The notes below the pieces were generated by a model. The model searched no databases and was not told the DNA's origin. It was given only the letters and a program-made list of their open reading frames with translations. A DNA stretch of 63,193 nucleotides, counting the filler, from Dugesia japonica (Eukaryota), in assembly GCA_001938525.1 (NCBI GenBank). It is 6 parts of 6 records of this genome, joined end to end, with 100 filler letters (N's around TTAATTAATTAA, not from the genome) between each part and the next. Parts side by side here need not be neighbours in the genome. Positions count along the whole stretch, not along the records: positions 32,291 to 43,190 come from MQRL01612179.1; 5 more parts are not named here. The stretch is one strand, 5' to 3'. Both the position numbers and the translations under genes were made by a program. Below, one piece after another: positions 16,592 through 58,075 of this stretch. The first letter of the stretch is position 1. Each line of letters starts with the position of its first letter.

Positions 16592-18279
16592 TTATATTTT
16601 TTTATTTTGATTGATTNTTAAATATTTCTTCATGCTTTATTTCATGGAGAACTCATGAATATCACCGCGAACAAAAACAAATAGTTTATTGATAGTAAAT
16701 ATATTAAACCAGTTAAAGTCTCAACAAAATGAATGCTTAGATTTAGAATTATGAAAGAGCCCAAAACGAAGACAGGTGTTGATGCACTCCGGTACGGATT
16801 AGACTTTATGACACTTCGAAGATCAACTAAAATAATATTCGGTTCATTTCTTGCGAGTATCTGATGGATTCTGAGGAGGATTGAGAAATGTAACTACTAA
16901 AGCTAGTTAATTGATCAGGAAGTCAATTAATAATAAAATAATCCACTTGTATATTATTTCGGTAGTTGTTTTTATATCAAGGATAAGCGAGCTTTTATTA
17001 NAAAGAGCCAACTACAAATTTAAAAACAAATATTCGGATCGAAACATTAAAATATGCACATCATAACAACCTTTTAACAAATTAGAATATTAGTGGCCAA
17101 GCATACATATTTATTCATAAAAAACTCCGTCATAAATTAACAATATTTATGCATAAACAAATAAAGTTGAATTTTGTAAATCTCCAATAATTTCCACACG
17201 AATTAGTATTGACTGTTTATATTGTTAAAATAAATAAAAACCTGCGTATTCCAATCGCAATTTTATAATTGATAAAAAAATATTATCTTCAAGAAAATAT
17301 CCAAATTGTAGTTACATGTTTCTTTTAAATAATTTCACAATTTCAGAAAATCTTAATGTTTAAAGAACTAAGGTTTTTTTAATATTCATAATTTCTTAAT
17401 AATTAAATTAATTTAAATTGAAAACTGGAAATATTCAGTTATTTATCCTGAAAAAAACAGTAAAAGATTATTATTATGGAAAATATCTTAGATAAATTTT
17501 AATGAGAAGTTTGGGATTGCTTCTTTGGTGTATATTTGTTGATATAGGTCATTCAGCCTCAAATGGTTGTCGATTTTAATTATTTTCATAGCTAAAAATA
17601 ATTGCTCACAAATATAAGTACTAACATAACTTGACATGATTTGCATTACATACGTGAATAATCGTCAAAAATTCAAAAATCCTGTAATTTCGATAAAATC
17701 TTTGGATGTTCACAATATGAAAGTTATTAATCAGTGTTGTTTTGAAAATTTATTAATTTCATTTGTAACTTGCTTTTTGCTTGTTTTTAGCACATTTTTT
17801 GGATAATAAAATTGCATAAATGCTTATAAAAATCACAAAATTTATTTTTGATCAATGCAATCAATATTGAAAATAAAATATACTGCCTATTTTTTTAATT
17901 AAAATGACAAACTAACAAGTCACAAACATAGTCAGGGCAAAAAACACAGAAAAAGGTTTTTTGATTTGTGAAAAACTTTTAGTTTGAGCCAAATAAAATA
18001 CAATGAATTCTAGTAAAACGCGATGTTTCGCGTTTTAAAGAATCGCGTTATACGAGATATATATTATNNNNNNNNNNNNNNNNNNNNNNNNNNNNNNNNN
18101 NNNNNNNNNNNNNNNNNNNNNNNNNNNNNNNNNNNNNNNNNNNNNNNNNNNNNNNNNNNNNNNNNNNNNNNNNNNNNNNNNNNNNNNNNNNNNNNNNNNN
18201 NNNNNNNNNNNNNNNNNNNNNNNNNNNNNNNNNNNNNNNNNNNNNNNNNNNNNNNNNNNNNNNNNNNNNNNNNNNNNNA

Positions 18280-18690
18280 TTAAATCACGAAAGGCGTTTT
18301 TAGCAGACTCTTTAAATTTGAATAATTTTCCCACCAAGAAGTTTTCGAATGTTTTGAAGAACTGATAGTCCATTAGAGAAAGGTCGGGTGAATACGGTGG
18401 GTTGTACAGATTTTCTAACTCAAATCCCCGCAGTTTGAACAGCGGTTGCGTAGCCAACATGTGGTTGAGTTTTGTCTTATTAAAGAATTTGCCTGTCTCT
18501 ATTGACCGATTTGGGCTACTTAATTTCAAGCAATCTCATCATGTCGTCATATTGGTTGCAGTAGACATCTGTTTAACAGATTGACCAGATTTCAAAAAGT
18601 TGAAATGGATAATATCAGCGCCAGACCACCAAACAGATAACATTAACTACTTTTCAAGAATATTCGGCTTTGGAATTTGTTTTGGTACTT
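18280..18690 (-). mobile_element. mariner transposase remnant
   Basis: PPYSPDLSLMDYQFFKTFENFL and upstream MLSVWWSGADIIHF. Confidence 0.9.
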
Positions 18691-22369: not shown

Positions 22370-23010
22370 CGATCAGCAGTTACGTTAAAAAATTATTCTT
22401 CCAATAATTGTAATTGCTTAACTATATTGTCCAACGTATTCCAGCCATGAAATTCTGGATTGTAAAATTGATCTGATCAAAACAATTGCGATAATTTAGA
22501 TGAAAAGAATTGNNNNNNNNNNNNNNNNNNNNNNNNNNNNNNNNNNNNNNNNNNNNNNNNNNGGTAATTTATCTTTTCAACTAAAACTTTTAATCAATTA
22601 AATCTACTTAAAGTTAATTTTTAAAGTAGCCATATATGAATATTCTATCAAGTAAAAAAATAGAGGCAAGACTCAAATGGTTATATTTACCATAAAAACG
22701 GTGTTTAAAAAAAGCTGTTACATGACTTATGTCTAAATTCTTCCCATGCTCCCAAGTTGTTGCGTGTGGACCTGCTTCAATTATCACCTTCAAATTGTTC
22801 TTGACCAACTTTTGATTGACGTTTCCGACCTTCGCCATCTTCAAGGCTCTCATCTCCACTCCTGATTTTTTAAACCAAAATTGCACCGTTCTTTCTTTTG
22901 CAGTTTAATTGCCGAATGCGTTGTTGAATTTCAGAGTCGTCTCTGCTGATTTAGATTCAAGTTTAAATTCATATAGGAATATTGTTCGTATTTGATATTT
23001 GCAACAATGT
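22370..23010 (-). mobile_element. mariner element remnant (N-terminal HTH and C-terminal end)
   Basis: QIRTIFLYEFKL...NNAFG..TAKERTVQFWFKK resembles the Hsmar/SETMAR HTH. Confidence 0.82.
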
Positions 23011-23152
23011 GGGATGGCAGAACGGACACTGTAATGGCAAATTGCAAGTAATCTAACTTTTTTAAACATACAATATTTAATTTAGTATTTTCACTTCCTA
23101 GATGAATAACAAGTTAGCATGTATTCATGAAAACTTTATATTTAATTGCACT

Positions 23153-32616: not shown

Positions 32617-33388
32617 TCGACTTGGGCCTTCCAGGCTCATTCCTGCTCTTGGACAAGCCGCATCTCTTCGCGAATACTGGTACACTTATTTTTGTACCTT
32701 TTTACTTTCGCGGTTGCAGTTGCTACGTCGGCCTCCCAACGCCGCTTGGCTAGGCGATATAGGCTCCAGGACATCTCTATGTCCACACTATTCTCACTGA
32801 TTTTCTTAGTCGGGGCGGGTGGACGATTTAGTAATGAATGCACTATAGGAAAATAAAGTATGATTAATTCTTATTAAATAGTTAGGCAAATATTCTATTA
32901 AGGTCACAAAGAATTTATTATAATGGATTAAAATAAGACAACACAAATTGAATGTCACATTCTCATAGAGGAAANNNNNNNNNNNNNNNNNNNNNNNNNN
33001 NNNNNNNNNNNNNNNNNNNNNNNNTCCGCGAATGATTCGACTTGGGCCTTCCAGGCTCGTTCCTGTTCTTGGACAAGCCGCATCTCTTCGCGAATACTGG
33101 TACATTTATTTTTGTACCTTTTTACTTTCGCGTTTGCCGTTGCTACGTCGGCCTCCCAACGCCGTTTGGCTAGGCGATATAGACTCCAGGACATCTCCAT
33201 GTCCTCGCTATCTTCGCGGATTTTCTTAGTCGGGGCGGGTGGACGATTTAGTGATGAATGCACTATAGGAAAATAAAGTATGATTAATTCTTATTAAATA
33301 GTTAGGCAAATGTTTTATTAAGGTCACAAAGAATTATAATGAATTAAAATAAGACAACACAAATTGAATGTCAAATTCTCATAGAGGA
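32617..33388 (-). repeat. Diverged ~355-bp tandem duplication carrying a coiled-coil exon-like ORF
   Basis: 32617-32972 matches 33037-33388 with many substitutions; acceptor ttattttcctatag precedes NRPPAPTKK...WSLYRLAKRRWEADVA. Confidence 0.85.
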
Positions 33389-34100: not shown

Positions 34101-34601
34101 TTAATTCTGATTCATAACAATGATTGAACTCAATGTTGTTCATTATTTCATAATCTATTAAATACTGATTTATACATCTTTACATCATTTAACATTTCAC
34201 TATCGTAAATTATTGACTGGGATATTTAAAATTCATTATACAATTTTTCCTTTCAATAAATTTTATTTTGGTTTTCTATTTATATTAATATACATCTTTA
34301 CATTACTATCTAGACATGTAAATACTGTTACAAAGATGTCTAATATTGTTTGAGCATTTATAAAAATTTAAGTGATATGTAATTTTATTACTAATTTAAT
34401 TTTTCATTTCCTATTTTTTATTCCTACTTCTTAATACGACTATTTATATCTGATTTACCTTTTTATTTGATCTATGGATATCTTTATATCCATAGATTTT
34501 TATATTATCATTATATAACTTTATATATAAAAGTAATAGAGAAACAACGATTTGACGTCGAGGGGCTACCCTTTAAAAGAAACGATTTAAATTCGGGGTG
34601 A

Positions 34602-34792
34602 AAATGTGAAATGTAATATGCAAATATGTGAAATGTAATATGCAAATATGTCATATGTCATATGTAATATGCAAATATGTAATATGCAAAATGTGAAATG
34701 TAATATGTAATATGCAAATATGTGAAATGTAATATGCAAATATGTCATATGTAATATGCAAATATGTAATATGCAAAATGTAAAATGTAAAT
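34602..34792. repeat. Subterminal 7-9-bp higher-order tandem repeat
   Basis: Mixed units aatgtga / aatatgt / aatatgca / catatgt; a block of about 85-90 bp is repeated twice. Confidence 0.9.
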
Positions 34793-34896
34793 CCTATATC
34801 TCGCGCTTTAAATTTGCGCATTATTTATAATAAATCCTCTTAAATAACAAAATATCCTCTTTTTACTCTCTATGATTAAATTAATTCTATATAAAA

Positions 34897-37800
34897 ATGC
34901 CAACGGAAATAATGCTGTGTGATAATTGTAATAAAACATTTAAAAATAAAGCCGGACTAAAAGGGCATCTCGCATCTAGAACTTGTTATAAAGATGCAAC
35001 ATTTTAATGTGAAAAATGTAATAAATCATTTAAAAGAGAAAGTGATTTACGGTCACATTTAAATACATCAAGTTGTGGAAACAATGAAATTTTCCCATTA
35101 TTCTGTGAAATTTGTGATAAAGCATTTAAAAAACAAAATAATGCAAGAATACATTTTAATTCTTTAAACCACAAAGAAAAAGTTATTAAATTAAATTTTG
35201 ACCAACTTCCAGGTGAAGAAGCAATTGATTACTCAGTAGAAATAAGAGAAGCATTAAGAATGTATAAATATCACAAAATAACTTATTTTTTAGAAAGTAA
35301 AGTGGAAATGTTTTATGATGCCGAGGATTATCCTTTTCCAATTAGAGATATTTTTTGGTTTAAAGATGAAGTAAGACAAATTGTTATGAAATATTATAAA
35401 TGTGTAAAACAACCAATTATAAGTATGATAGTAACATGTAGATATGAAAAAGATGATACTGAAAGAAATTTTAAATCATATTCAATTAATAAAACAATTA
35501 CAATTAAAAGTGAAATTAATAGCCGTGTCAATGAAATGTTTAATGATTTAGATAAATATATTGAAGATGATGATCTTGAAGGTTCGGGTTGGACAATGAT
35601 GTTTATTACTGACTATACTTTATATTTAAGTAAATATCAAGCAAAAGCCGGAGCAACATATATTAAATTACCATTTAAAAAACCAGGTGTAATCAACATA
35701 GAAAATAAAGATGATAATAAATGTTTTCTATATTCAATTCTAGCATATAAACACGTATTTGATAATCCAACACGTGTAACTAATTACATTCCATATTTAT
35801 CAGAATTAAAATATTCAGATTTTACATTTCCTATGAGCATCGGCGAAATACATTTATTCGAGAAATTAAATAACTATAAAATAAATGTTTTCGGTGTAGA
35901 TGCTAACAAGAAACTTGAACCACTTTACATTTCACATCACATATCAAAACCTTCAACAGAAGAAAATAAATGTAATCTCTTGATATATAAAGATCATTAT
36001 GTTCTATGTCGAGATCTAACCACANTTTTTACAAGAAACAAAAATAAAAATTATCCATGCATACGATGCACGAATTGTTATTCAACTGAAGAACTCCTAA
36101 TTAAACATCAAGAAGCATGCATTAACCATAGACCAAATAACATTGTATTTGATTTTAAAAATTATTATTTCTTTAATAAATTTTATCAGAAAAATAAAAT
36201 ACCTTTCATATTAATAGGTGATTTTGAAGCATACACAAATTCAAATAAAAAACAAAAAGCATTATCATTAGGAATTTATCTTCACAGTGAGCACCAAGAA
36301 TTATTAGAATCTAAATATTATTGTTTTACAGGTGAAAATATTTATCTAGAATTCTTTGAATTTTTAAATGACATTAATAATAAATTAGAAGATATAAAAG
36401 AAAATAAATTAATATTAGAATTCTCAGGAACATATCCCAAATTCGAAAATCAATTATGTTTTTATTGTGATAAAGAAATAAAAGAGAATCCAGTTATAGA
36501 CCATAATCATTTCACAAATGAATTCCGTGGTTATGCACATGAAAAATGTAATTTATATGATTTTAGTGTAAAAAATCTATTCATCCCATTTTANTTTCAT
36601 AACGCATCCGGCTATGATAATCATTTATTTTTCAGAGAACTACTAACAAAATTTCCAGGAAAAGTAAAAAAGATAATTCCACATACATCAGATAATTATA
36701 TTTCATTTCAATATGAAAATATTAAATTCCTAGATTCAGCTAGATTACTACCATTCACATCTATAGAAACAATGGGTAATTTATTAACATCTTCCAATAA
36801 ATATCCAATATTAACATCATTTAACCTTAGACCAAAGAAAGNATTATTTCCATATGAATATGTAAAAGGAAACACTATCCAAGAAGTCATAAAATTATTA
36901 AAATCAAATCGAACACCAACTAGAAAAGATTTCTTTAATACACTAACACAAAAAGAAATATCTAACGAAGACTATGATAAATTTTTAATAGATTATTTAG
37001 ATTTTAAAAATCTCTGGGATTACATGCTACATTACATGAAACTTGATGTTTTAATTCTAACTGATTTCTTGGAAAATTTTAGAAATTCATGTTTAAATAA
37101 TCTTCTTAGATTAGATCCTTGTTATTCATATTCTGCACCAGGATATTCATGGGAAACTGGAATGTTAAATGCAAATATTTACTTAAAATATGCTAAACCT
37201 GAAACCTATGATTTATTCTTATTAATTGAATCAGGAATACGCGGTGGCTATTCAGGTGTCTTAGGTGAACGTCAAGTCTTTTCAAATAATAAAATCTCAA
37301 ATCCTAGTTTTGGTAGTAACAGACGATTAAATAAAACACAAGTCTCTGAGATATTATATTCATTAATTAAAAATAAAACTCCACCAATAGATTGGAAAGA
37401 AGAAACATTTATAAAATATATAGATGAAAATTCTCTTTATGCATCATGCATGACAAGACCATTACCAACAGGTGAACTTGTTAATTGTGAAGATTTAATA
37501 TATGAACCACCAACTGAAAATATGAATTTTATCTACGAAGTTGATTTAGAATATCCTAAAGAAATCCATGATAAAACTAAATATTTTCCATTAGCACCAG
37601 AGAGAATAAATATTACAGAAGATATGTTAAGTAATTATCAAAAAAGTTTTAACAAGAAAATATCAAAAGATAATATTAAACTAACTCTTAATCAATTTAA
37701 CAAGAAAAATTATACAGTTCTTGGATCAACTTTAGATCTCTATTTAAAACTAGGAATGAAACTTACAAAAGTTCATAAGAAAATTCAAATGCCAGTTTCT

Positions 37801-39413
37801 ACATGGTTTAAAGATTATGTTCATAGATTAATATCCCTAAGAAAAGAATCTAAAAGAATTAAAGATGTCTTTGGAGATTATATTTATAAATTAATGTTAA
37901 ATGCCTTCTATGGCAAAACACTAGAAAATATTAGAAATCGATGTAACATAGAAATTGTTGATACCGACAAAGATTATCAAAGACTTGCAGCTAAACCAAC
38001 ATTTAAATCATCTAAAATCTTTAGTATAAATGATTCAAATGAAGCCACAGTTGCAGCAATGCAAATGATAAAAGGAAAATTAAAATATAATAAATTTCCA
38101 TATATTGGATTCACAATCCTCGAATATGCAAAAGAAGTTATGTATGATTTTGTATACAATCAAATGCAACCGTTGATTGGTGAAGATAACTATAAAATTC
38201 ATTACACCGACAGTGTTACCCATGACACTCCAATATTACTAAGAAAAGATCGCGAAGCTCATCAAAAAGGAAATAATAAAGTTGAAATAAAAAAGATTTC
38301 AGAAATATCAACATGTTATGAGAAAAATATTTATGACGGGAAATATTATTCTTATCCTGAAAACCTTGAAATATGGACTAAAAGTAATTGGGTTCCACTG
38401 AAAAAAGTAATTAAACATACTACAATTAAAAAGATTTACAGAGTCAGAACACATCTTGGAATTGTTGATGTAACAGAAGATCATTCATTATTAAATGATA
38501 ACAATATAGAAATTAAACCAACAGATTTAACATTAAACCCTAAATTATTACATAATAAATTTAAAACATTAATATCTTTAAATAATACATTTTCATGTGA
38601 CATTTTAAATAAAACAATTCAAGATAAAATATCTTTATCTAAAGCTTATTATTTAGGAACATCTTTAGGAATGAATTTAATTATTACAGAAGACAAACCA
38701 AATTGTTTCGATTTAAAAGAATCAACTGGAGAAATTGAAACTAATGTCCAAACCGTAAGATTTTTAAGAGAAAATCTAGAAGATGTATACGACATTGAAA
38801 CTGAAGATGGAACATTTAACTGTGGATTTCCATTGATAATAAAAAATACGGACTGTATCTTTGTTGAAATAAAAAACAGAGATAATTTAATAAAATTAGA
38901 AAGCCTACTTGGTGATAATTTATTTCAAATGAAAGATGAAAAACCTAATTGTGAAATAACTCAAGGTAATTTTATAAAANNNNNNNNNNNNNNNNNNNNN
39001 NNNNNNNNNNNNNNNNNNNNNNNNNNNNNCCTAATTGTGAAATAACTCAAGGTAATTTTATAAAAGCAAAATCTTATGCTTATTCATATGCAAGCACAGG
39101 AGATATGGGCTATGATTTTAGAAATAAAGGTGTCAAGAAAAATAATAAATTATTAATGACAGATTTTGATTCAGTATTAAATGATCCTAAGAAAATAATT
39201 TATGGAACAAATTATTCATTAAAATCAGATTGCCATGAAATTGAATTAATTTCACAAAAGAAAATTGCATTAATGGCCTATGATGATAAAAGAATAATAG
39301 AAGATGATGCAACAAAAACATGGCCACATGGAAATCAATATCTCTGTTCTTTGTGCACACAATGGCATTTAAGATTAGATAAAATAAATCACTGCACTTC
39401 TTGCTCTCGTTAG
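34897..39413 (+). CDS. polB: Protein-primed DNA polymerase B polyprotein with N-terminal zinc fingers and an intein (about 1476 codons after closing the false gap; one in-frame TAA)
   Basis: Exo motifs GDFEA, FHNASGYD, FLDS; pol motifs YIDENSLY, KLMLNAFYGK, YTD/TDC, KAKSY, KGVKK, YDDKR. ATG 34897 is in frame with 35260. 38944-38979 is repeated at 39030-39065, so ORF 39105-39413 is the C-terminus. Confidence 0.95.
36457..36552 (+). other. Endonuclease VII-like His-Me finger inserted in the exonuclease domain
   Basis: CFYC...VIDHNHFTNEFRGYAHEKCN fits CxxC-DHxH-RG-H-xxCN, common in one Polinton pPolB group. Confidence 0.85.
38212..38847 (+). mobile_element. Mini-intein (212 aa) in pPolB motif C
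   Basis: Starts SVTHDTPILLR (block A); has VTEDHSLL (block B TxxH) and VYDIETEDGTF (block F); ends IIKN followed by Thr+1; removal restores HYTDTDCIF. Confidence 0.95.
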
Positions 39414-39450
39414 ACAAAATATAAAAATGTAAATATTTTAAATAAAGAAA

Positions 39451-40236
39451 ATGTCATAAGCAACAGAAGAAGAATTAATTAAAATTGTAAATTCTAAAAA
39501 ATGTAAATCTGTAAAAATAAATGGTAAAAATTATTATATCTCCAAAAAAGTTAAAGATGAAGCCAAAAAAGCTAGCGAAGCCCATAAAGGAGGTAATAAA
39601 GAAGGTGGATTTGCATTCTTAGCTGCCATACCATGGGTAATTGGCGCTTTAGCAAGTTCAGCTGGAGTTGCATCTGGTATTGCAAATACAGTTGCAAATT
39701 CTAGAGCCGCTCAGGCACAAGCTTTGGAAAAAATCAATAAACAAAAACAAGGTGAATTAATTGAATTACAAAAACAAAGAACCATAAAGGAATCTGCTCC
39801 AGTTTCAACTACAAGCGAAGCCAACAAACAAACATCTGGAACTGGAATTAAAAACCATAAAGATAAAAACCAGCGAAGCCAAAAACCACAAGGGCAACAA
39901 ACAAAAACCCATAAAGGAAGAAAGTGCACAAATAAAGGCAAAAATCATAAAGACAAAAACCATAAAGGCAAAGGAATATTTTTAAATCCATATCAAGGCA
40001 CAGCAATTCATAAATATTTAAAAAATATTGATCCTAAATTTAAACTCCTAACTAAAAAATTTAAAAAAGGAACCCACATAATTCAACATGGCCGTGGAAT
40101 ATATTTAAATCCATATGCAACACATAAAGGTGGAGAAATAGAAGATGAAATTGATGAAGATGAAACTGAAACTGAAACCGAAGATGATGAAACTGAAACC
40201 GAAACCGAAACAGAAACAGAAACTGAAAATCCATAA
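39451..40236 (+). CDS. Adenovirus pX/core-like virion protein (in-frame TAA at codon 3)
   Basis: Frame of ORF 39724 extends upstream to ATG 39451; KEGG-FAFLAAIPWVIGALASSAGVASGIA resembles the adenain-cleaved pX hydrophobic segment; GKGIFLNPY and GRGIYLNPY repeats; acidic (ET)n tail. Confidence 0.75.
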
Positions 40237-40278
40237 TGCTGGAAATTAAATCTTTATAAAAGAACCATAAAGGAGATA

Positions 40279-41247
40279 ATGTATGCTAGAATTAAAGAAT
40301 TAAAAGCTTTAATTAAAGCTCAAGAAGAATATAATGATTATTTTTCTAATAAAATTCTTGATTATAATACTTTACAAACTAACTTATCCACTTTACAAAA
40401 ACCAACAATAACTGCATTAGAAAAACTTACATTAGAACCAACAATAAAAACAGAACCCATAACAACAGAACCAGAAATTGATTTATTTAAAAAAGATGTA
40501 ATTACTCTCACATTACTTGCGTCTAAAGATGTATCACCATTTAAACCTGATAATTTAACAATAAATAATACAAACATATCACCAACAATAATTCCACAAT
40601 TTGATGAAATACCTGTAACACCAGATAAAACTTACACAAGATTATTTTTTAACCAAACAAGTGTATCAATATTTTTCTTTATAATTAAAGATATAAAACA
40701 TTTATCAATAAATAATAAAATTTATGAAGATGAATATCAAGATAAATTTGTTGATTTAATGATGGGTAATCTACATACAGATTATACTTTATATGAAAAA
40801 GATGATATTTTAAGAAAGTTTATACTTATATATTTAACAGAAATAATAAAACCACCCCCGAGAAATAATTATTGTGAATTTTTTAAAGTAATATCTGGAT
40901 ATGATAAAATTAAAAGAAAAAAAAGTAAAATTGAACAGACAGATCTTGATAAAGCTTTTAAAAAACAAGAAATAGAAGATGCTAATCAAATTTTAAAAAA
41001 AGAAAAAGAAATGGAAGAGGAACATATAGAAAAAAGAAGGGTACAAAGTGGAAAAGGCAACAAAAACCATAACAACAACAATCCAATTGCATTATTTGAA
41101 AAGTTAACATTGTTAATTTCAGCTGTAAAATCTGGACATAATAATCTCTCATCTGAAATTAAATCTCTGTGTAAAAATTTAAAATCTCAAGGTTTATTAT
41201 CTAACAAGATATATAAAAAATATAAAATGAAATATTTCAAAAATTAA
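40279..41247 (+). CDS. Conserved Polinton-associated protein, 322 aa
   Basis: Intact ORF; C-terminal GKG...NPIALFEKLTLLISAVKSGHNNLSSEIKSL matches the Polinton DPNELxxRLxLLxxxxxAGN-NEI motif as I recall it. Confidence 0.75.
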   Translation: MYARIKELKALIKAQEEYNDYFSNKILDYNTLQTNLSTLQKPTITALEKLTLEPTIKTEPITTEPEIDLFKKDVITLTLLASKDVSPFKPDNLTINNTNISPTIIPQFDEIPVTPDKTYTRLFFNQTSVSIFFFIIKDIKHLSINNKIYEDEYQDKFVDLMMGNLHTDYTLYEKDDILRKFILIYLTEIIKPPPRNNYCEFFKVISGYDKIKRKKSKIEQTDLDKAFKKQEIEDANQILKKEKEMEEEHIEKRRVQSGKGNKNHNNNNPIALFEKLTLLISAVKSGHNNLSSEIKSLCKNLKSQGLLSNKIYKKYKMKYFKN

Positions 41248-41300
41248 ATAAACAAAATAGCGAAGCAAAAACAAAAATCCATAAAGGAAGAAAGTGCATT

Positions 41301-42096
41301 ATGTCTCATCAATTCTTAGTAGTTGGAAAAGAACAAGATTTAAAAGTAAATTTAGATTATCCTATAAAATTAGATTCAGAATATGAACTTGGCATGTTAT
41401 ATTTTTTATGTTACAATATTATATTTAACATCACCAATTTAAATAATAAATTTATTATCAATGGAATTGAACAAGAAAAAACCGGAGCCATAAAGGCCGA
41501 AGGAGCCATAAAAACCGAAGGAGCCATAAAAACCGAAGGAGCCATAAAGTCCGAAGGAACCGAAGGAGCCATAAAAGAAAAAACAATAAAAAAAATTAGA
41601 ACCAGGATCTTATGAAGTAAAAGAAATATCAAAACGTTTAGAAAAACATCTTGAAATTACACCTGATCTTGCAACATCTAAATGTAACATGAAAATATTA
41701 ACTAAAAACACTCTAGAGTTTGATAATAAATCATTCTTCCATGGAATCCTAGGATTTAAACCTGGAAAATATGAACCTGGTAATTATTATTCAGATACTA
41801 AAATTGACATTATAAATTCTAACGCGTTAAATATTACATGCAATATTGTTAAAGGTAATTATTCTACTAATAATCAACAAACAAGAAATATTAATCTTTT
41901 ATATTCATTTCCAATAAATACAGTTCCATTTGGATATAAAATAGTAGAAAGGCCATCACCAGCTATTTATTCTAAAATTAACACAGATTACATCGATGGT
42001 TTTAAATTTAATATCGTAGATGAAAATTTTAACACAATAGATTTTAACCAAGAAACAATTACAATTTTAGTTCATCTACGTAAGTATCGACTTTAA
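41301..42096 (+). CDS. Minor capsid (penton) protein, split by a +1 frameshift in A8 at 41588-41595
   Basis: PIKLDSEYELGM..YNIIFNITNLNNKF, then LEPGSYEV, ILGF, ITCNIVKGNY, VPFGYKIVERP, IVDEN..IDFNQETITILVHLR. Confidence 0.85.
41481..41576 (+). repeat. 18-bp in-frame tandem repeat (GAIKTE) inside the penton gene
   Basis: About 5 copies of ccgaaggagccataaaaa. Confidence 0.92.
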
Positions 42097-42136
42097 AACT
42101 TAAAACTTAAAACTGATATTTAATAAATAGCGAAGA

Positions 42137-42622
42137 ATGAGCGAACATAGAGGACAGAATTTTTGTTTATTAGATTTTTTAAAAACATTTGGAATTAACA
42201 CAACAACAAATTTTGATTTATATTCAATTGCTAACTTTTTAAAAATGCCATTAGAAATTTACATGAAAAATGAGACACCTAAGATATTACCTTCAAAGAA
42301 TATGAATTTTATTTTTAATTATCAAAATTCAAATCAAAATGGAACACATTGGACAGCCTATTATGAAAGATATTATTTTGATTCTTTTGGTTTAAAACCA
42401 TTAAAAGAAATCCCGGGTGTAAAAGTTTATAATAAAATTCAAGTGCAACATTTTAACACTGAAATATGCGGCATTTTATGTATTTATTTTTTATATAAGA
42501 TCCAATATGTAAAATTTAATCTAACGAAAGCAAGGAGTGCATTTGATACTATTATATCTGAAATGAAATCTTTATGTAATGAGCTACGCGAAACCATAAA
42601 AGGAGATGAAATAGTCGAATGA
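42137..42622 (+). CDS. Adenain-type cysteine (maturation) protease
   Basis: GTHWTAY (His), YFDSFG (Asp), QVQ (Gln), ICGILCIYFL (Cys). Confidence 0.93.
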   Translation: MSEHRGQNFCLLDFLKTFGINTTTNFDLYSIANFLKMPLEIYMKNETPKILPSKNMNFIFNYQNSNQNGTHWTAYYERYYFDSFGLKPLKEIPGVKVYNKIQVQHFNTEICGILCIYFLYKIQYVKFNLTKARSAFDTIISEMKSLCNELRETIKGDEIVE

Positions 42623-42687
42623 AATCACTTTATAATTCAATATTAGAAAATAGCGAATAAAAATCCATAAAGGAAGAAAGGAAGAAG

Positions 42688-43190
42688 ATGAATAAGTTTG
42701 GTGCTACTGCTGATTCCGGTGATTCAACAGATTTATTAAAAAGTGTTGATGCTAAAATTAGAACCTTAGATGCGACAAATGAAAATAAATATGTAAATGA
42801 AACTGGTGACACAATTACATCTTTAAAAATAAAAGAAGACCCTAAGGATCTTCAAGATGCAGTTAATTTAAAATACATAAAGAAATCAGAAGAAGATAAT
42901 TTAAAATACATAAAGACTCTTGAAGATAAAATACAAAAACATGAAATAATATTCAGTAGATTATTAAAAGTTGATGGTTTCACAGCAAACAAATTATATT
43001 TAGAATCTAAAATTCAAGAATTAAAAACTTTGAATGTTGATATTTCAGGTTTGAATGATAAAATTAAAAAATTAACAAAATCTTGTAACCAAGAAACATT
43101 TGACAAAATCAACACCGAAATTAAAAGATTAAAATTATCAGTTTTTCCATTTAAAAAAAGTGATTTATTAGTTAAATTAAAAGAAATAAA
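42688..43190 (+). CDS. Fibre-like coiled-coil protein, 3' truncated
   Basis: MNKFG start, KYVNETGDTI and PKDLQDAVNLKYI motifs resemble viral fibre/stalk repeats, followed by heptads. Confidence 0.6.
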
Positions 43191-43290
43191 NNNNNNNNNN
43201 NNNNNNNNNNNNNNNNNNNNNNNNNNNNNNNNNNTTAATTAATTAANNNNNNNNNNNNNNNNNNNNNNNNNNNNNNNNNNNNNNNNNNNN
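43191..43290. other. Artificial 100-nt contig spacer
   Basis: N44-TTAATTAATTAA-N44. Confidence 0.95.
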
Positions 43291-44054: not shown

Positions 44055-47030
44055 TCAGCATCTCTTTAACCATTCGATTCTTCTAAATCTGGTACCTTGT
44101 GGAGTTTCTAACCGAACTTAGTGAGGTGTTAGAAATTCAGTAATTTTATATGGACCTTCATAGAGTAAATCATTCTTCTTTAGTTTCTGAGGGTCTTTTC
44201 TTACTAACACATCTTTGCCTACTTCGAATTCGCGACTAACACGGTTTTCCCTTGATTTATCATTGTCTGCTCGTTTAATATTATCGTAAGCTTTATTTAT
44301 AATTGCATACTCTCCGAAGTTGTGTTCCTTATTTGTGTGAATATTTATCTTCCTCCTATAAATGATTGCCATTGGTTTTCCCGTTGACTTTGATACATTA
44401 CCATTGAATGCAAACTCTACTCTAGGAAGAATCTCATCCCAAGATTTTTCCTCCTCTCCTGCTTTCATTGAAATCACTATCAGGTCTCGAACTGTTCTGA
44501 TTGCTCGTTCAGCAAATCCATTAGATTTATGTTCATATGGAGAGAAAAGATCCATGAAATATTAAGCTTACTAGCTAGATTTTGTAATAATTTCCCTTCA
44601 AATACTTTACAACGGTCTGACACGATTTTCTGTGGTTTTCCAAATTTATAAATCCAGTGGTTTAGTAGAGTGCTTTTGACAGCGGTTTCATTTTGATTAT
44701 TTGTTGCAGTAAGACTAATCATTTAACTAATTTGATCGATGATAACAATCATATATCTTTTATTTGATCGACCAATATCCATATATGCTATATCCATAAC
44801 GATTTGTTCAATAGGATTACTTACTTCACGCGTAATAAATTTCTCTTGAACCTTTTCACTACTTATTTTCCTGCGCATGCAAAATTGACATTGTCGTATT
44901 ATATGTTGAATATCTCTTATTATATTTGGCCAGAAAAAATAATCTGATACATATTTTATAGTTTTCTTCATTCCATCATGACATAAATCTTTGTGTACTT
45001 TATTAACAAAGTCAATTATTTCATTTGTTAGTACTGCAATCTCTTTATCTTCTCCAGAGAGGTATTTTTCCCTTTAACAAACAATTCATTGCTCTTAAGT
45101 CTGTTAATATAGCTATCCATATTGCCTACCGAATCATCTAAAACACTCAAATATTTTACTTTAGACATCTTAACTTTAGCATCGACATATTCTGTTTGAC
45201 ATTGAGAACAATAACTTGAAAGAATACGAGACATACCATCTNNNNNNNNNNNNNNNNNNNNNNNNNNNNNNNNNNNNNNNNNNNNNNNNNNNNNNNNNNN
45301 NNNNNNNNNNNTTTGAAATTGTGGCGTAATTGGTTTATGTGAACGCTTAATAAATTCCAATGCCTTGTGATCAGTTCGTGCTACAAAATTTTTCCCATAT
45401 AAATAATGACAAAAATGTCTGATAAATTGATATAACGTCAGCAATTTTTTACGTGTCACGCAATAACCTTTTTTATAAGCATTTAGTAGTCTTGAGCCGT
45501 ATGAAATTACCACTTCACGACCGTTTTGAATTTGGCTCAATACTGCACCGATCCCACTAAAGCTAGCATCAGGATCCAATATGAATTGGTTGCTTGAATC
45601 CGGAAAACCTAATATTTGCGCAGTACATAAAGCTTGTTGGATTTCATTAAAGCTGGTTTTGCCCTCTTTAGTCCATTGGATTTCTCGTTTATAGCCTTCG
45701 GTTGCAGTATATAATGGTTTTTCAAGTAACGAAAAATTCCTAACAAACTTCCTGTAATAGTATGACATGCCTAAACAGGAACGTAATTGTTTAGTGCATT
45801 GTGGTATTTCTGCTTCTGAAATTTCTAAGACTTTCTCTGAATTAGACCTCAATCCGTCTTTGCTAACTATATGGCACAAAAATAACAATTCACTTTAATA
45901 TAATTTACATTTATTTGGATTGATTTTGAGACCAGAATTCTGAATTCTTTGAAATAGATTTTCAAGTATGTTATNNNNNNNNNNNNNNNNNNNNNNNNNN
46001 NNNNNNNNNNNNNNNNNNNNNNNNNNNNNNNNNNNNNNNNNNNNNNNNNNCAAAATTGTATTCATCAATTTCTGAAATGTAGCTGGAGCAGATGATAACC
46101 CAAATGGCATACGATTGTAGCAATATTGTCCCTTTTATGTTGAAAATGTCGTTTTAATCTTATCTTCTTCGTTTAATTCTACTTGATAATAAGCTTGTCC
46201 CCTATCCAACGTTGAAAATATTGTACAACCACAAACGTGGTCAAACAAGGTTTGTGGATCTGGCATTTGGAATGAAAACTTTTTGTAGAATCATTCAATA
46301 TTCTAAAGTCTTTGCACATTCTGATCGCACCATTCTTTTTACCAACAATTACTATCGAAAAATTCCCAGCACTTCTAAATTGACCTTCTCTACTGTTTTG
46401 GGAATCATTAAATTCTTCAGCAATTGGAATTGCCTTTTCAATTTCATTATTACTAAGTTTATAATAGTTAAAACCTTTTAAATCGGTTTTCTTAATTCTC
46501 GGGTTGTAACTTGCAGCTGCCACTTCTGAGTAAGTCAACTTATTTATCTGTGACCCACCAAAACTATCATCGTTCTTCTCAAAATACTCAGCCAACTTTC
46601 TCATTTCATCCAGTTTAATTTCTGGTTTAACAGCAAATGATTTTCTTAGCTCTTTCGGAAAAAACTCTTTTCTTGATTATTTGCTGAGCAATTTCCTCCA
46701 CAGTCAATCCTGATTCAAATATTTATTTGACTGATCTTAAAATTCTTAATTCAAAGTTTTCAAAATGTTCATTTTCTTTTTGTCAAATTCCACTACATTC
46801 TTCAATAATTCGGAGAAATGACTTTTCTTTTATAAATTTTCCTTTAAACCATTCACTAGCCATTTTATCGTTAACATTCTGCTGGCTTTTAACTGCATCA
46901 CCGTCTAATAAAAAATCTAAGGTTGATAATAAATCAAAACTGTTTGATTCTGCAAAAACTGAAATTTCATTTAACCATTTTGCTGGGTCAAAATATTCAG
47001 ACTCATACTGATTATTCAAAGACGGCAAAA
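44055..47030 (-). mobile_element. Ty3/Gypsy LTR retrotransposon gag-pol remnant
   Basis: RT (IRMCKDFR, MPFGLSSAPATFQ), RNase H (DASFSGIGAVLSQ, RTDHKAL) and integrase (MDIA, VSDR, SNGFAERAIRT, GPY) in RT-RH-IN order; stops and frameshifts; LTRs not identified. Confidence 0.95.
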
Positions 47031-47605
47031 ATGTTACAGCCTTGACCATTGATGAAAAAATAAAAATAAACCTAAGAACCATACCATACAAAAAATGAAA
47101 TAAAGAATGTAACATTCAGAGCACGAAACCAAANNNNNNNNNNNNNNNNNNNNNNNNNNNNNNNNNNNNNNNNNNNNNNNNNNNNNNNNNNAAAACTTTT
47201 TCTTTAATGTAAACATTTTTTTAAAACTTTTATTTTATGTAACTGAGTTTAATATAACCCATCACAGATTAAGATTCTAATTATTCGGCTGTTGTACTAC
47301 AGGCGTAAAAATGTAATCATCATAATGATGCATATACCTAAATGTACATATTTGAATGTTTTATAAAAGTTTTTTTTTTATTGTAAGTTGTAATTTATAT
47401 TGATAATGTGAACTAAATTTAATATGAATTTGTTTTATTGCGATTTTTCGAGCATTTTCAATCGCGATAAATTTAATATCTTACTTATTTGGTTTCAATC
47501 GACACTTGCGTTACGACGGTATAAATTTCTATTTAATTCAACAATCATTACATTTTCAGTTTTTTAATTAAATTTAATGTAGAAAAAGTAAAAAATTATT
47601 TAATT

Positions 47606-48110: not shown

Positions 48111-50775
48111 TCTCCAAAAATAACTTTGCATATATTGTTAATGGATTAAATGAACTGTTAAATATTAAATAAAAATTATGATTATAATTCTAAAATTTTT
48201 ATAAAAATTTCCAGTATTTTTATTATTAAAAATTTTTTCAATATGAATATGGTGCCACAACTGTTTAGCCGGCGCTGTATATTATATTATAACAATAATT
48301 ATGTTAATAAATATTATCGACAGCACAATTTAATTTTTAATTATTTGTAAAAACCTTAACTTGGCAACCACCAGAAGAGAGAAAAGAAATTTCATGAATT
48401 TAAAAACTAATCGAACAGAAATAAATTTAAAAATTAAAATAATTGAAAGACAACAAACAAAGCAACTATTTGTTAGCTAAAGAAACTGTTTTCATTCCAA
48501 ATTCAAAAAGAAAATAGAACATAATAAGAAACTAATAAAAGAAACTGAAGTTCAGAGACGTTTTAATTGTGCCAAATTTTGAAAAAAGTCTAAGAACGTG
48601 CAAAACGTAACAATCGTTTGAAACGAAAGAGAAATATCGAGAATTACCAACCTCGTTTCAAAATAATTTATTAAGTAACTAATTTTGTTCTAGTTAATAA
48701 AATTCGTTAACATTTCTTAGTAGATTCATTGTTAATTTTTATTTTCTTTGTGCCGATTAATAAAACTTTTCATACTACAATTACTCATACAACATACACT
48801 CCAAGTGTTCTTACACGAGCACTATTTTTGGTGACTCTTGAAGACAACAAATTTTTTTAACACAAAATTGACAAATAAAATAATTATAACATTAAAATAA
48901 GATAATCTAACAAATAGTATATAAGAAAAATTACAGTAAAGTAAAATAAATTGTGGGAAAGATATTTTTAGGTTATAAAATATAAAAAACTAAAATACGC
49001 AGCCTCAACACTAATTAATTGTAAAATTTGATGAGGTTTTTAGAGAAATGTTCGTTAAATGTGAAAATNNNNNNNNNNNNNNNNNNNNNNNNNNNNNNNN
49101 NNNNNNNNNNNNNNNNNNNNNNNNNNNNNNNNNNNNNNNNNNNNNNNTCTAAAACTGTTTCTTTAACGATTAATTCTAAATACTCCCTATGATATTTTAA
49201 TTTTAAAATATTTCATTTCACTTCTTAGACACTGACAACTGAGTTTAAAAATGAGACTAAGTTTTCGTATAATAATTGCTGTTTATTGCAAATTGAAATG
49301 CCTACAGAAATATCAATGAATTTATATAAATTATATTAATTAATCGTAATAAATTATTTCCTTTCAAATTTAATTGTAAGGCCTAAATTAATCCCGTTCC
49401 TATTTTCAATTATTATCATAAATATTTAATCAGGTTTTGTCTTATCTTTGAAAGACTGGCAGAAGTACAATTAGAATTTTGATATTTGGTGTTTCAAACA
49501 AGAATGCTAATTTTTTCGGTTAGGATTATTAGAAAATATATCATTTTAATTATACAAAAATAATATATATGAAAATCAATTTTATTAACACATTTTATTC
49601 GAAATTCTCTTTTTAAAAAGTACAAATTTTATTTGAATTTTTTTTAAATATCAATAAAATTTACTATCTATTTATTGCGTTAAATTTAAATTTAAAATTT
49701 TTATAAATTTTTAGCATTGTTTGGATCCATTCAAATACAAAACATCACAAACATTCATATATATATTTCATATATATATATATATATTTTTCTCATACAT
49801 TTTAAGTTCAAATAATGTTAAATTACATTACATTATTTATTAAATATTTCAATAACAATATAAGCCCTTATAATTAAAAGTAATTAGAGGAGTTGGCTTT
49901 TTTTTGCCAAAATTAATAGGATTCAGCCGTAGTATTTTGAGATTCGTAAGGTTATTAAGTATTTCAAATAAACAGGAATGAAATTCTACTAATGTTACGA
50001 TTTTCAGTCTTTCAGTTTATCTTCTATTGTTGCAAATCCGAATTATTGAATCTTAACTTCTTCAGTAAAGAAATTTTTGGATTTTAAAAAGACATGATTG
50101 TAAGAATTATTCATAGATTTAAATATCTCAGAAATCTTTCTTTAATTTATATATAATATTCATATATAATATTAAAATTTATTTTTAAAACATAAGTAAA
50201 ATGAAATATTTCAAAAAATTTATTTATTGAAATTATTAGGTAAACTATTTATGAAATTTTTATATTTCAAAAAAATTTATTTGATGGAAGTTAATATTTT
50301 TAAAATATTTTATAAATTTTTATGTAAAGTAAAATATTTATTATTTTATTGAAAATTTTCTCAGATTANNNNNNNNNNNNNNNNNNNNNATTCTTGATAT
50401 AATTTTTATTTTAATCAAATACACTTGTAATAATAAATACAATTTATGGAGAGTTGCGAAGTTTTGAATTTAACTAATAATGATAAAAAATGTTCATAGT
50501 TCTTTTTTGATAGACCGAAACGAGAATAACTATAAAGTAATTATTACTTTACTTTAATCTAAAGAGTTATAAATTTAAATCTTCATTTAAATAAATTAAT
50601 AATTTGGTGAATTTTAAAAACATGTTATTTGTAAATTATTAACTTGTTCTACTATAAATTTATGACTCAAAATGTTGTTCTGACTTTGCGTATATGAACA
50701 CACACATGCATATATATATATATATATATAACAAAATATATTTTTGTTAATAAAAACTTGATTTTAAAAAATTAC

Positions 50776-51017
50776 CTTTAAACAGTTTTGATGTACATAT
50801 TTTAAAGTACCAGAACAATAGCAAGGAGAAATTAAAAGATCAGATTGAGTGTTCTTTGACAAATGACAAAATCTACACATCGGATCGCTTAAAATAGACC
50901 CGTTGCTGTAAATACTGTTGTCCTGTTGATCATCGATACTTTTGTCAGGAGAATCAATTGAATCTTGATGAATTTGTGCTTGTGAATTCGGAGTAGTTTT
51001 GGGAAGGAAGCATTTTT
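50776..51017 (-). CDS. Exon of a MARCH-family RING-CH E3 ubiquitin ligase
   Basis: AG/GT-bounded open exon ending PMCRFCHLSKNTQSDLLISPCYCSGTLKYVHQNCLK (C4HC part of RING-CH). Confidence 0.9.
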
Positions 51018-51274
51018 CTGGAAAAATGTAATTAATTATTTACAACAATTTTTGACGTATTGAAAATTTTATTTTGGTTAATAATTAATTTGTTATAATA
51101 ATGTAATGTAAAACAATGGATAAATGACAACCAAATGACTTTCCCATTATGGAATGGAACAGGCCAATCTGAAGGATGTGCCAATTCGGAAGTATATACG
51201 ATACGCGAAACAAAATCCGATCAAATTCCAAAATAAGACAAAAATCTTGAAACAATTTATTAAAAATAAATTTT

Positions 51275-51800
51275 AATATTTGGTTGGCATTTCTCCGTCA
51301 TTGTTAATAACAGCTTGGCATCTGCGTTGCATGCTTTTAACATAGATTTGTGAGAAAAGTTGTTGGTAAATTCCACACAACTTCTAAAATTGGAAATACT
51401 TCATTTTGATTTTGTGGATTTCTGTCTGCCACTTGTTTANNNNNNNNNNNNNNNNNNNNNNNNNNNNNATTTAAATCTGGACTTTGAGATGGCCAATCCA
51501 AAATTTTAATATTTTTTCTCTCCAAATATTTTTGAATAATTTTCGCTTTTGTTGTCATGCGGGAAAATTTAATTACCATCTGGGAACAATTTTTTTGCTG
51601 AAGGTGCCATTTGCCTAATTAATATTTGGCGATATTGTTCATTGTTCTTTTTTACCTACAAAGGCTTCCAACGCCATGTGAGGCAAAGCATTCCCAGACC
51701 ATTATTCTTTTACCTTGTTTGACTGTTCCTATCATGCATGATTTGGAAAAACGCTGATTTTGAAGTCTCCAAATGCGTTTTGAGTGCTGAAACCATAACA
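51275..51800 (-). mobile_element. Tc1-like transposase remnant
   Basis: TVKQGKRIMVWECFASHGVGSL and LDWPSQSPDLN. Confidence 0.92.
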
Positions 51801-51974
51801 AGGAGAGGAATGAGTAGCGATCAAAATGAAAGTTATAGGGTGCGATTCGGTGATATATATTCATTTAAGTGACTCTTTAAAATTTGAAAAAACTTTGAAA
51901 AATATACAATTTGATGGAAAATAATTTATTATTAATATTTGTCATTTTCAAATATAACATAAACCAGCATAGTA

Positions 51975-56688: not shown

Positions 56689-57239
56689 TATTTTATATTT
56701 AAAATATAAATAATTTGGCGCATTGCATAATTTTCAAAGTTTATCAATTTTATCTTTTAGAATCGATTCCCTCAACACACAAATTTCAATTTTATCAATC
56801 AATTATCATGTCTTACCTGTAAATTACAAATTGTTTCAAATGAATCCATTACGTTCATTGAGAGGTTTGTTCGTATCTCCAATAGTCATTACATACTACG
56901 AAATTATTAATAAATTATTGATTTCCAAATGTCATTTTTTCAGATAGTTCAGGCGTTCTTACCTGAAATTCTTGCTAGAAATAGTGGTCAAATAGTAGCA
57001 ATATCTTCAAATACTGGATTAATAGGTTGCCGAAAGCTTGCAGATTATTGCTCAACTAAATTTGCTGTTGTTGGTTTTCAAGAAGCACTGATGAGCTAAA
57101 TTCAGACATTAAAAAAATATGGTTTACAATTATTAACAGTTTGTCCTTTTCATATCAAAACTTCAATGTTTGAGCAATACCAGTTCAAGTAAATGATTAT
57201 AATGTTTCAAATGATTATTTGACACCAACTGACAAAATA

Positions 57240-58075
57240 AATAAATTTGTGGCTTTATCTGAACATTAAATAATTATGAAACAACAGCCTACAAAAGACT
57301 ACCAACTAAAGAAGAAATTAAATTCAAAAAAACCATTAATTCAAATAGCGGGAAAATATGATGACCTAATAAAATCTTTACTTTTAACTGTTAAATGTCA
57401 CTAACCAGTTCCATCTTCGATGTACTGTGTTCCCAAAGATCATAAAACGACAATAAAAGGAAAATCTATTGTCAACGATTCTGACACTACCCAAATAAAA
57501 TTATATCAAAATATTTATCTTCTAATACAAAACAAAATAAAATCAAACCAGAAAAAAATACAATAATTAAATTACCTTTTATTACTGAGAAATGTAGCCA
57601 AATCATGCAAAATGTAATAAAATAATCGAAACTCAAACATAATCCAACAATTATATTTCAAACGCAAGCACTTTTGGGCATTCAATTACAGAAACCAAGA
57701 CAAAACTTTTGTGGTCCCAAATATATTTGTGATGGTAAAAATTTTTTACTAAAATATTTTTACTAAAAATATATGCAATAAACAAAATTTCATTTATAAA
57801 CTAATATGCACCATTTGTCAAGAAACATAAATAGGTGAAACATGCAGAACCATCCGAACAAGAATTAAGGAACATCTCAAACAGAAAGAAAGTGACGTCT
57901 TCAAACACTTTCAACACAAATTAAAATTGTCACCAGAACAACATCACATTACATGGAAAACACTAGGAACAGGCTACAAGTGCACACTTTAACGGAAGAA
58001 ACGTGAATAATTAGTAATAATTACGGATAATTACTAAAGAAGATAAACCTAAAATCAATATAATTTATAATAATT
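57240..58075 (+). mobile_element. Penelope-like retroelement remnant in the SDR intron
   Basis: RT-like MYCVPKDHK...IV and GIY-YIG endonuclease IYKLICTICQET*IGETCRTIRTRIKEH...VFKH. Confidence 0.85.

Follow-up and report, generated by a model that had tools for sequence, protein, structure and literature searches.

Polintons, or Mavericks, replicate as linear DNA by protein priming with a pPolB polyprotein, mature their capsids with adenain and integrate by means of an rve integrase (PMC11161782, PMC8502044). Near-intact copies are common, and vertebrates alone hold 134 intact elements (PMC8097293). Inteins are described from the family B DNA polymerase (PolB) of Mimivirus (PMC549080), from the Pol-c site of Nucleocytoviricota polymerases, and from endogenous virus polymerases in the nuclear genomes of Klebsormidium, Tetrabaena and a labyrinthulomycete (PMC10710043); metazoan genomes have been stated to lack them (PMC5784728, PMC8529194). 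Intein invasions have been proposed as the origin of the endonuclease insertions seen in Polinton pPolBs (PMC11161782), a proposal that anticipates intein traffic into pPolB but concerns endonuclease domains only and names no splicing domain. We describe here a locus at positions 34532–43190 of a 63,193-nucleotide (nt) stretch of DNA (assembly GCA_001938525.1, filler included; the whole stretch is hereafter the window). Gene content and alignments support it as the left arm of a Polinton/Maverick of the adintovirus type, and its pPolB gene is interrupted by a predicted mini-intein.

Our preferred explanation, which we consider probable, is that a Beta-type Polinton left arm lies in a probably animal genome and was recently disabled, and that its pPolB holds an intein of giant-virus derivation that has lost homing. 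A near-intact Polinton fragment is ordinary; the intein in pPolB is the unusual part, and it was overlooked in an earlier, sequence-only reading. With the Polintons and Beta-PolB adintoviruses of PMC8502044 and the HNH-bearing pPolB2 Polintons of 10.1101/2023.08.22.554363 the element has in common an HNH-bearing pPolB, adenain, a penton, a pX-like gene, an AGT-type start and intronless genes on one strand. It differs from them in the Hint-domain intein in motif C, and its contig differs from full Polintons in having no capsid, ATPase, integrase or right end. The word “intein” is absent from the main texts of both papers (the second also as PMC10748475), and a term search of 10.1101/2024.03.25.586562 gave no match. 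No splicing-type intein in a Polinton polymerase or an animal genome was found in the accessible literature (PMC12220804, PMC5718144 and PMC3671162 included), a search that lay outside Repbase, InBase, bioRxiv supplements and subscription journals, where prior notice is possible.

The insert in polymerase motif C

Motif C of pPolB is split after its first aspartate by 212 residues (38212–38847, plus strand) that start with Ser, end with Asn and are followed by Thr; 636 nt of the apparent pPolB reading frame are taken up by this intein. The insert matched TIGR01445 at 26.2 bits against a cut-off of 24.5. Its intein residues are Ser1, Thr88 and His91 in block B, Asp194 in block F, Lys211-Asn212 and Thr+1, and Ser1, Thr88, His91, Asp194 and Asn212 were invariant across a 53-row alignment. 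The penultimate Lys is the family norm, being present in 90 of the 104 relatives whose inteins were extracted from the listed matches. A structure model of the insert scored 92.6 in the predicted local distance difference test (pLDDT); when it was used as a Foldseek query, 32 matches were obtained at E≤0.001, and every row listed was an intein or an intein-like domain, 5o9i being the best match (E 4.7e-8). Residues and modelled Hint fold together match a canonical class 1 intein of the Pol-c allele, for which self-splicing is predicted. A spliceosomal intron was rejected on the basis of the open frame, the intein fold and ends that are not GT-AG, and a Hedgehog-type or free Hint domain was rejected by the position of the insert within motif C at the allelic intein site.

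No LAGLIDADG motif or Pfam endonuclease match was found in the window's intein, which is ∼138 residues shorter than its sister intein in the relative P0006, the loss being in frame. As judged from these comparisons it is a non-homing intein whose two-motif LAGLIDADG endonuclease has been lost. The intein and the HNH insertion of pPolB lie at different sites. GC content at third codon positions was 0.12 for the intein and 0.14–0.16 for the exteins, a match consistent with long residence.

With the two aspartates of motif C held apart by the intein, the polymerase precursor would be active only after the intein's excision. Conserved residues and fold suggest a splicing route through an acyl shift at Ser1, attack by Thr+1 and cyclisation of Asn212. 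The mini-intein would then persist because versions unable to splice would leave the polymerase non-functional, and the fact that the splicing domain was kept once the endonuclease had been lost in frame suggests that the polymerase stayed under selection.

The Ser…Asn/Thr ends, the family B polymerase host and the block B Thr/His are held in common with the Mimivirus PolB intein (PMC549080) and the Nucleocytoviricota Pol-c inteins, and the window's splicing residues are those listed for the Mimivirus intein. In the alignment the window intein was 38–47% identical to inteins of the giant-virus type, which occupy the same motif C site. Unlike the Mimivirus case, the host protein here is the protein-primed polymerase of an integrating 15–25 kb element rather than a PF00136 polymerase, and the endonuclease is deleted (212 versus 351 residues). 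The loci of PMC10710043 likewise have an intein in an endogenous virus polymerase within a nuclear genome, but their hosts are algae and a protist, unlike the probable animal host here; “polinton”, “metazoa” and “animal” are absent from the main text of that paper, and “polinton”, “maverick” and “metazoa” from two of its supplements. Unlike the endonuclease cases of PMC11161782, the window pPolB has a complete Hint domain and junction residues, away from the HNH site.

Intein relatives, trees and presence/absence

A search with the intein region scored 8,000 candidates and gave 427 matches, of which the best 120 were listed; note that such a query favours intein-bearing proteins. These 120 comprise seven pPolB-type proteins with an intein, six intein-free pPolBs and 107 mostly PF00136-type polymerases. 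Among these 107, one bears the name of a Mimiviridae polymerase, and we infer that the others are giant-virus proteins. From the 120, 104 inteins were extracted by pattern and that of P0001 was added by hand; six entries were the intein-free pPolBs and nine failed extraction. All 104 extracted inteins lie at exactly the same allelic site. Among the matches listed, the seven pPolB relatives (P0001–P0007) carry an endonuclease-bearing intein of 337–350 residues at the same motif C site, with LAGLIDADG domains in 7/7. P0001 is named from a metagenome-assembled genome (MAG) of a bivalve symbiont. A search of a phage collection with the intein gave no match.

Four inteins longer than 480 residues were removed before a 102-row tree was built, and a 42-row tree was built with 34 outgroup inteins hand-picked from 94. 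The eight pPolB inteins fell on one side of a branch in both (Shimodaira–Hasegawa-like approximate likelihood ratio test 92 in the 102-row tree; 98/88 in the 42-row tree). The inteins of the window and of P0006 are sisters (99/96), with 57% and 55% identity in two blocks, and the exteins of the same two proteins have no significant similarity (best E 0.57). The window extein groups instead with those of the intein-free P0008 and P0009 (100/99), which read uninterrupted through motif C. Intein presence needs four changes on the extein tree, and the approximately unbiased (AU) test rejected the seven Beta-host inteins as one group (p-AU 0.032). Intein and polymerase trees, as reconstructed from these alignments, disagree.

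A family of 136 pPolB proteins, cluster 4, on contigs of up to 1 Mb, is polymorphic for the intein. It was read at the protein level in 15 listed members (P0004, P0124–P0137), 13 of which span the site: seven have the intein and six are without it. Five near-full-length intein-free members are 94–98% identical to P0004 except for an exact gap of 346 residues. In the six intein-free copies 9–11 of 30 residues differ within 15 residues of the site, compared with 1–5% elsewhere (Fisher p 2e-5 to 7e-12, for copies that are not independent), and motif C residues also vary. A tract of this kind is compatible with homing from a donor that had diverged, the flanks being co-converted, or with escape alleles. 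As copies of both states occur in this one family, homing can be tested in it directly.

The trees and the polymorphic family suggest a history in which an intein would have passed a single time into pPolBs from the PolB of a giant virus, an enzyme that commonly has an intein at this site; LAGLIDADG homing would then have moved it between Polinton lineages, and the window lineage would have lost ∼138 residues of endonuclease in frame, leaving a non-homing mini-intein. The two stops and the frame change described below would later have disabled the window copy. The broader proposition, that Pol-c inteins of giant-virus descent spread by LAGLIDADG homing among Polinton copies and distant classes inside animal genomes, is put forward tentatively, as somewhat more likely to be wrong than right. 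If it is true, protein splicing and intein homing operate in animal nuclei, contrary to their stated metazoan absence; Polintons and giant viruses were together in cells in contact close enough for an allele-specific intein to be exchanged; and the window locus is an end-stage, endonuclease-less member of a homing lineage. Endogenous viruses would be a route of inteins into animal germlines, provided that the host is an animal and that the intein splices. An allele-specific intein shared with giant-virus polymerases would mark the meeting of Polintons and giant viruses in one cell, and the shared intein bears on whether Polintons behave like virophages.

The Polinton arm and its lesions

The element's six genes, all intronless and on the plus strand, lie within 34897–43190. 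A candidate left terminus at 34532–34545 (plus strand) starts AGTAAT, the same six bases that open L002, one of two Polinton loci used for comparison; vertebrate Mavericks start (AGT)2 or (AG)3 (PMC8097293). AT skew changes from negative to positive at ∼34.6 kb, near this terminus. Tandem repeats with periods of 7, 22 and 87 (Tandem Repeats Finder; 34601–34792) probably sit inside the left terminal repeat. The left end is joined without a gap to approximately 1.5 kb of flanking DNA, which is non-viral and contains decayed zinc-knuckle fragments, and integration is supported because of this continuous junction.

An N-terminal C2H2 zinc-finger piece of pPolB (34897–35007; zf-met/zf-C2H2_jaz at the Pfam cut-off) starts at ATG 34897 and is in one frame with the main ORF (open reading frame; 35008–38979), which matched PF03175 (E 3.3e-19), aligned to P0009 and P0008 and had its motifs located. 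Identity to P0009 was 33% over 1,142 columns, to P0008 37%, and to the pPolBs of the two Polinton loci, L001 and L002, 27–30%. Zinc fingers, motifs of the exonuclease and of the polymerase, and a weak match to HNH are present in the polymerase; its N-terminal region aligns with Polinton pPolBs, and Cys and His motifs of this putative terminal protein/vOTU region were located by eye. An HNH/endonuclease-VII-like insertion, a pPolB2/Beta-type trait, lies at 36442–36558 (plus strand; PF02945 E 0.0099, below cut-off), with stronger PF02945-type matches in P0002, P0008 and L001. From the weak PF03175 match and the lack of similarity to P0006 we infer a Beta-type (pPolB2-like) element. The C-terminal part of pPolB (39030–39413) is 44% identical over 55 residues to the P0009 C-terminus (E 3e-10). 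A Cys/His-rich tail (39324–39413, plus strand) extends past the part aligned with P0009 and is possibly a fourth zinc finger.

The next gene (39451–40236) is, as a lead only, a pX-like virion core protein: atlas clusters carry Adeno_PX (PF05829) on 19–20% of members with a score of 0.89–0.90 and low recognition. It is followed by an open ORF of 322 residues (40279–41247) with no Pfam family above cut-off, whose C-terminus has a weak likeness to a conserved Polinton gene, the L001 ORF between ATPase and penton (26% over 57 residues, pairwise E 0.009). We presume this ORF to be “PZ-like”.

The penton gene (41301–42096) lies in two frame pieces. Its family was missed by a word-index search and recovered by a full HMMER search, in which the C-terminal piece had 666 relatives at E≤0.001. 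The pieces match neighbouring parts of a family profile built from 107 relatives (positions 4–81, E 6e-16; 85–251, E 2e-52), and the frame break lies within a single penton gene because both match adjacent parts of the same profile. The fold was seen on a model of the nearest relative, P0152 (46% identical; pLDDT 94.9), rather than on the window's own broken gene: this model matched the mavirus penton with Z 13.6, a root-mean-square deviation of 6.6 and 218 aligned positions, followed by PBCV-1, Sputnik and aviadenovirus capsid chains (Z 13.4–11.6). An adenain-type maturation protease in an open frame (42137–42622; Peptidase_C5 E 0.0054, below cut-off) is 35% identical over 125 residues to the protease of L001 (E 2e-13) and had no useful sequence match in the PDB. 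The last ORF (42688–43190) remains open and runs into a spacer; no family was matched in Pfam-type profile scans. A fibre-like protein was rejected for it, the likeness being by eye only and the best E value 0.74, against a fibre-like ORF of L002.

The 8-mer CCATAAAG occurs 11 times in the window versus 1.96 expected, with ten copies within 39582–42672, all on the plus strand. Three copies lie 14–23 nt upstream of an ATG (322-residue ORF, penton and last ORF), and the 8-mer is possibly a late-gene promoter motif; some copies in the pX-like gene may just encode repeated His-Lys-Gly motifs.

Element sequence ends at a 100-nt spacer (43191–43290) consisting of N44, a 12-base stop linker and N44. 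Five identical spacers (at 13792, 23153, 32191, 43191 and 53642) divide the window into six contigs, and contig order across them is not evidence of genomic adjacency. The two Polinton loci were obtained from a scan of genome contigs and are both intein-free. They (L001:1-11720 and L002:1-9222) are Polinton sequences in records titled as bacterial MAGs and are probably mis-binned eukaryotic elements; L001 has genes for protease, ATPase, penton, capsid (PF21738), a PLA2-like protein, chromo-integrase and pPolB. The 21 long ORFs of both loci, capsid, ATPase and integrase genes among them, were searched against the window and matched only the known pPolB, penton and protease segments. The expectation that the missing genes lie beyond 43190 found no support in this comparison, which gave nothing after the spacer; either the gap contains them or they have been lost. 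Nor was the expected right terminal inverted repeat present, as the window has no long inverted copy of the left end (34401–34900) and no right end matching 34532–34545. No target-site duplication was found; the right junction lies outside the window.

The assignment to Polintons/Mavericks made in the sequence-only reading is supported by pPolB (PF03175), penton and adenain, with the pX-like protein as a lead only. The element is not an adenovirus and has Polintons as its nearest relatives. Homologous adenain, penton, pX-like protein and protein-primed polymerase are common to Adenoviridae, but these have a separate terminal protein of their own and an inactivated vOTU (PMC11161782), whereas here a long N-terminal Cys/His region is fused to pPolB. 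Membership of Adenoviridae was ruled out by the single long pPolB frame and its N-terminal region aligning with Polinton pPolBs.

The coding stretches amount to 2,641 codons (7.9 kb) with two internal stops, compared with ∼246 expected from base composition, an openness far beyond chance. The three lesions of the earlier reading (TAA 35005, TAA 39457 and one extra A in 41588–41595) were each confirmed in the sequence. An in-frame TAA at 35005–35007 lies between the zinc-finger piece and the long pPolB frame; TAA 39457–39459 lies two codons past ATG 39451 of the pX-like gene, with no other Met in the next 258 codons; and the penton frame shifts at the A8 run at 41588–41595. Just 5′ of the latter is a low-complexity stretch of ∼100 nt (18-bp repeats, 41484–41558) that is unmatched by the family profile. 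On the assembly alone, this frame change may be biological or a homopolymer sequencing error. TAA reassignment or read-through was rejected for both stops, as three other ORFs end normally in TAA. A 50-N gap at 38980–39029 was rejected as a fourth lesion, its flanks being duplicated (36 nt either side), and is an assembly artefact.

If the two nonsense codons are real and neutral they correspond to 0.5–0.7% substitutions per site (95% range 0.06–2.4%), an estimate valid only on condition that the contig represents a single real locus rather than several copies collapsed into one sequence. Recent inactivation is plausible on this basis, and the earlier suggestion of a young insertion stands to that extent and on that condition; a “young, active family” is plausible but unproven. 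The contrast that had been drawn with heavily decayed transposons elsewhere in the window is supported by a neighbouring retroelement of the long terminal repeat (LTR) type at 44.1–47.1 kb, which is broken into approximately seven or eight pieces over 3 kb.

Alternative explanations, host and surroundings

Several observations weigh against the preferred explanation. The residue at +3 after the intein junction is Cys, where 103 of 104 intein-bearing relatives among the matches listed have Ser. Of 183 columns that do not vary among four relatives, the window pPolB differs at 44 (7–27% for the relatives, a count confounded by relatedness), and the element may be more degraded than three lesions imply. 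The trees are unrooted, and the direction of transfer, from giant viruses, is assumed from the fact that the allele is more widely spread among PF00136 polymerases; the grouping for the AU test was picked after the first tree had been seen, with the hand-picked 34/94 outgroup inteins; the extein tree gives P0006 a very long branch; and P0001–P0007 were compared at the protein level. The window yielded neither a right terminus nor a target-site duplication, and no capsid, ATPase or integrase gene. It might also be that several copies were collapsed or combined into this contig during assembly, or that the breaks are sequencing errors; the apparent youth and the three lesions would then belong to no single locus, and the family could be either fully intact or older. 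This we consider unlikely but to be taken seriously: three single Ns, all inside pPolB, fall in the 8.7 kb of the element versus six in the other 54.5 kb, the 50-N gap in pPolB is of the overlap type, the contig ends within the element and one break is at a homopolymer, yet majority collapse usually hides private stops, of which two are present, and the left junction is gap-free into a unique-looking flank. The intein would be unaffected in either case. Alternatively, the insert would be a dead, non-splicing relic in an already inactive polymerase, with any movement due to a helper's polymerase. The loss of the endonuclease, the unusual Cys and the long terminal branches in both intein and extein trees suit that account, which is nevertheless quite improbable given the five residues invariant in 53 rows, the presence of Thr+1, the in-frame deletion and the confident structure model; moreover, the penultimate Lys is common (90/104), and the intein-free cluster 4 copies likewise vary in motif C.

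The host is the remaining point. With the element and intein real, the host could be a unicellular holozoan or other protist, or the 10.9-kb contig could be foreign DNA; a non-animal host would extend the known intein-bearing viral polymerases of algal and protist genomes (Klebsormidium, Tetrabaena and a labyrinthulomycete; PMC10710043) and leave the metazoan rule unbroken. The PTB, RINGv and SDR genes lie on other contigs, across 100-nt spacers from the element, which counts against an animal host, and no host gene has a close named relative; PTB domains also occur in unicellular holozoans. The RINGv exon (50767–51039, minus strand) and the SDR exon (56914–57096, plus strand) have GT-AG spliceosomal borders. 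Among solved structures, the RINGv exon is matched best by a MARCH-type protein, ahead of yeast Doa10, and the SDR exon by 17-beta-HSD13/11. The GC content of the element's contig equals that of the window, and mariner, Tc1-like, LTR and Penelope-like relics suit an invertebrate genome. A non-animal host and foreign DNA are improbable on this evidence, and the genome around the element is probably that of an animal; its PTB, SDR and RINGv genes point to an animal with fast-evolving proteins.

The PTB gene (13001–13627, minus strand) is intronless and encodes 209 residues with a PTB/PID_2 match above the Pfam cut-off (E 3.8e-8); a word-index search found no homolog of its product, which we take to be akin to those of FAM43 genes. 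The SDR frame stops soon after the matched part and may be a pseudo-exon or splice earlier. Rfam and tRNA scans of the window gave no match. One set of 131 short ORFs and another of 140, the latter chosen from 329 as the most coding-like, were scanned with Pfam; five families were matched by four ORFs, and one reverse transcriptase fragment was recovered. The decayed LTR-type retroelement (44118–47115, minus strand) retains reverse transcriptase, RNase H and integrase pieces. Further transposon relics lie at 18035–18535, 22908–23081 and 51263–51864 (minus strand) and at 57387–58003 and 10547–10717 (plus strand); mariner-like, Mos1 helix-turn-helix and reverse transcriptase fragments are among them, and the Tc1-like and Penelope-like labels are tentative ones based on motifs. 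Two copies of a 299-nt sequence within 32617–33335, 420 nt apart and 94% identical, are GC-richer than their surroundings and flanked by N gaps, and are possibly a scaffolding duplicate.

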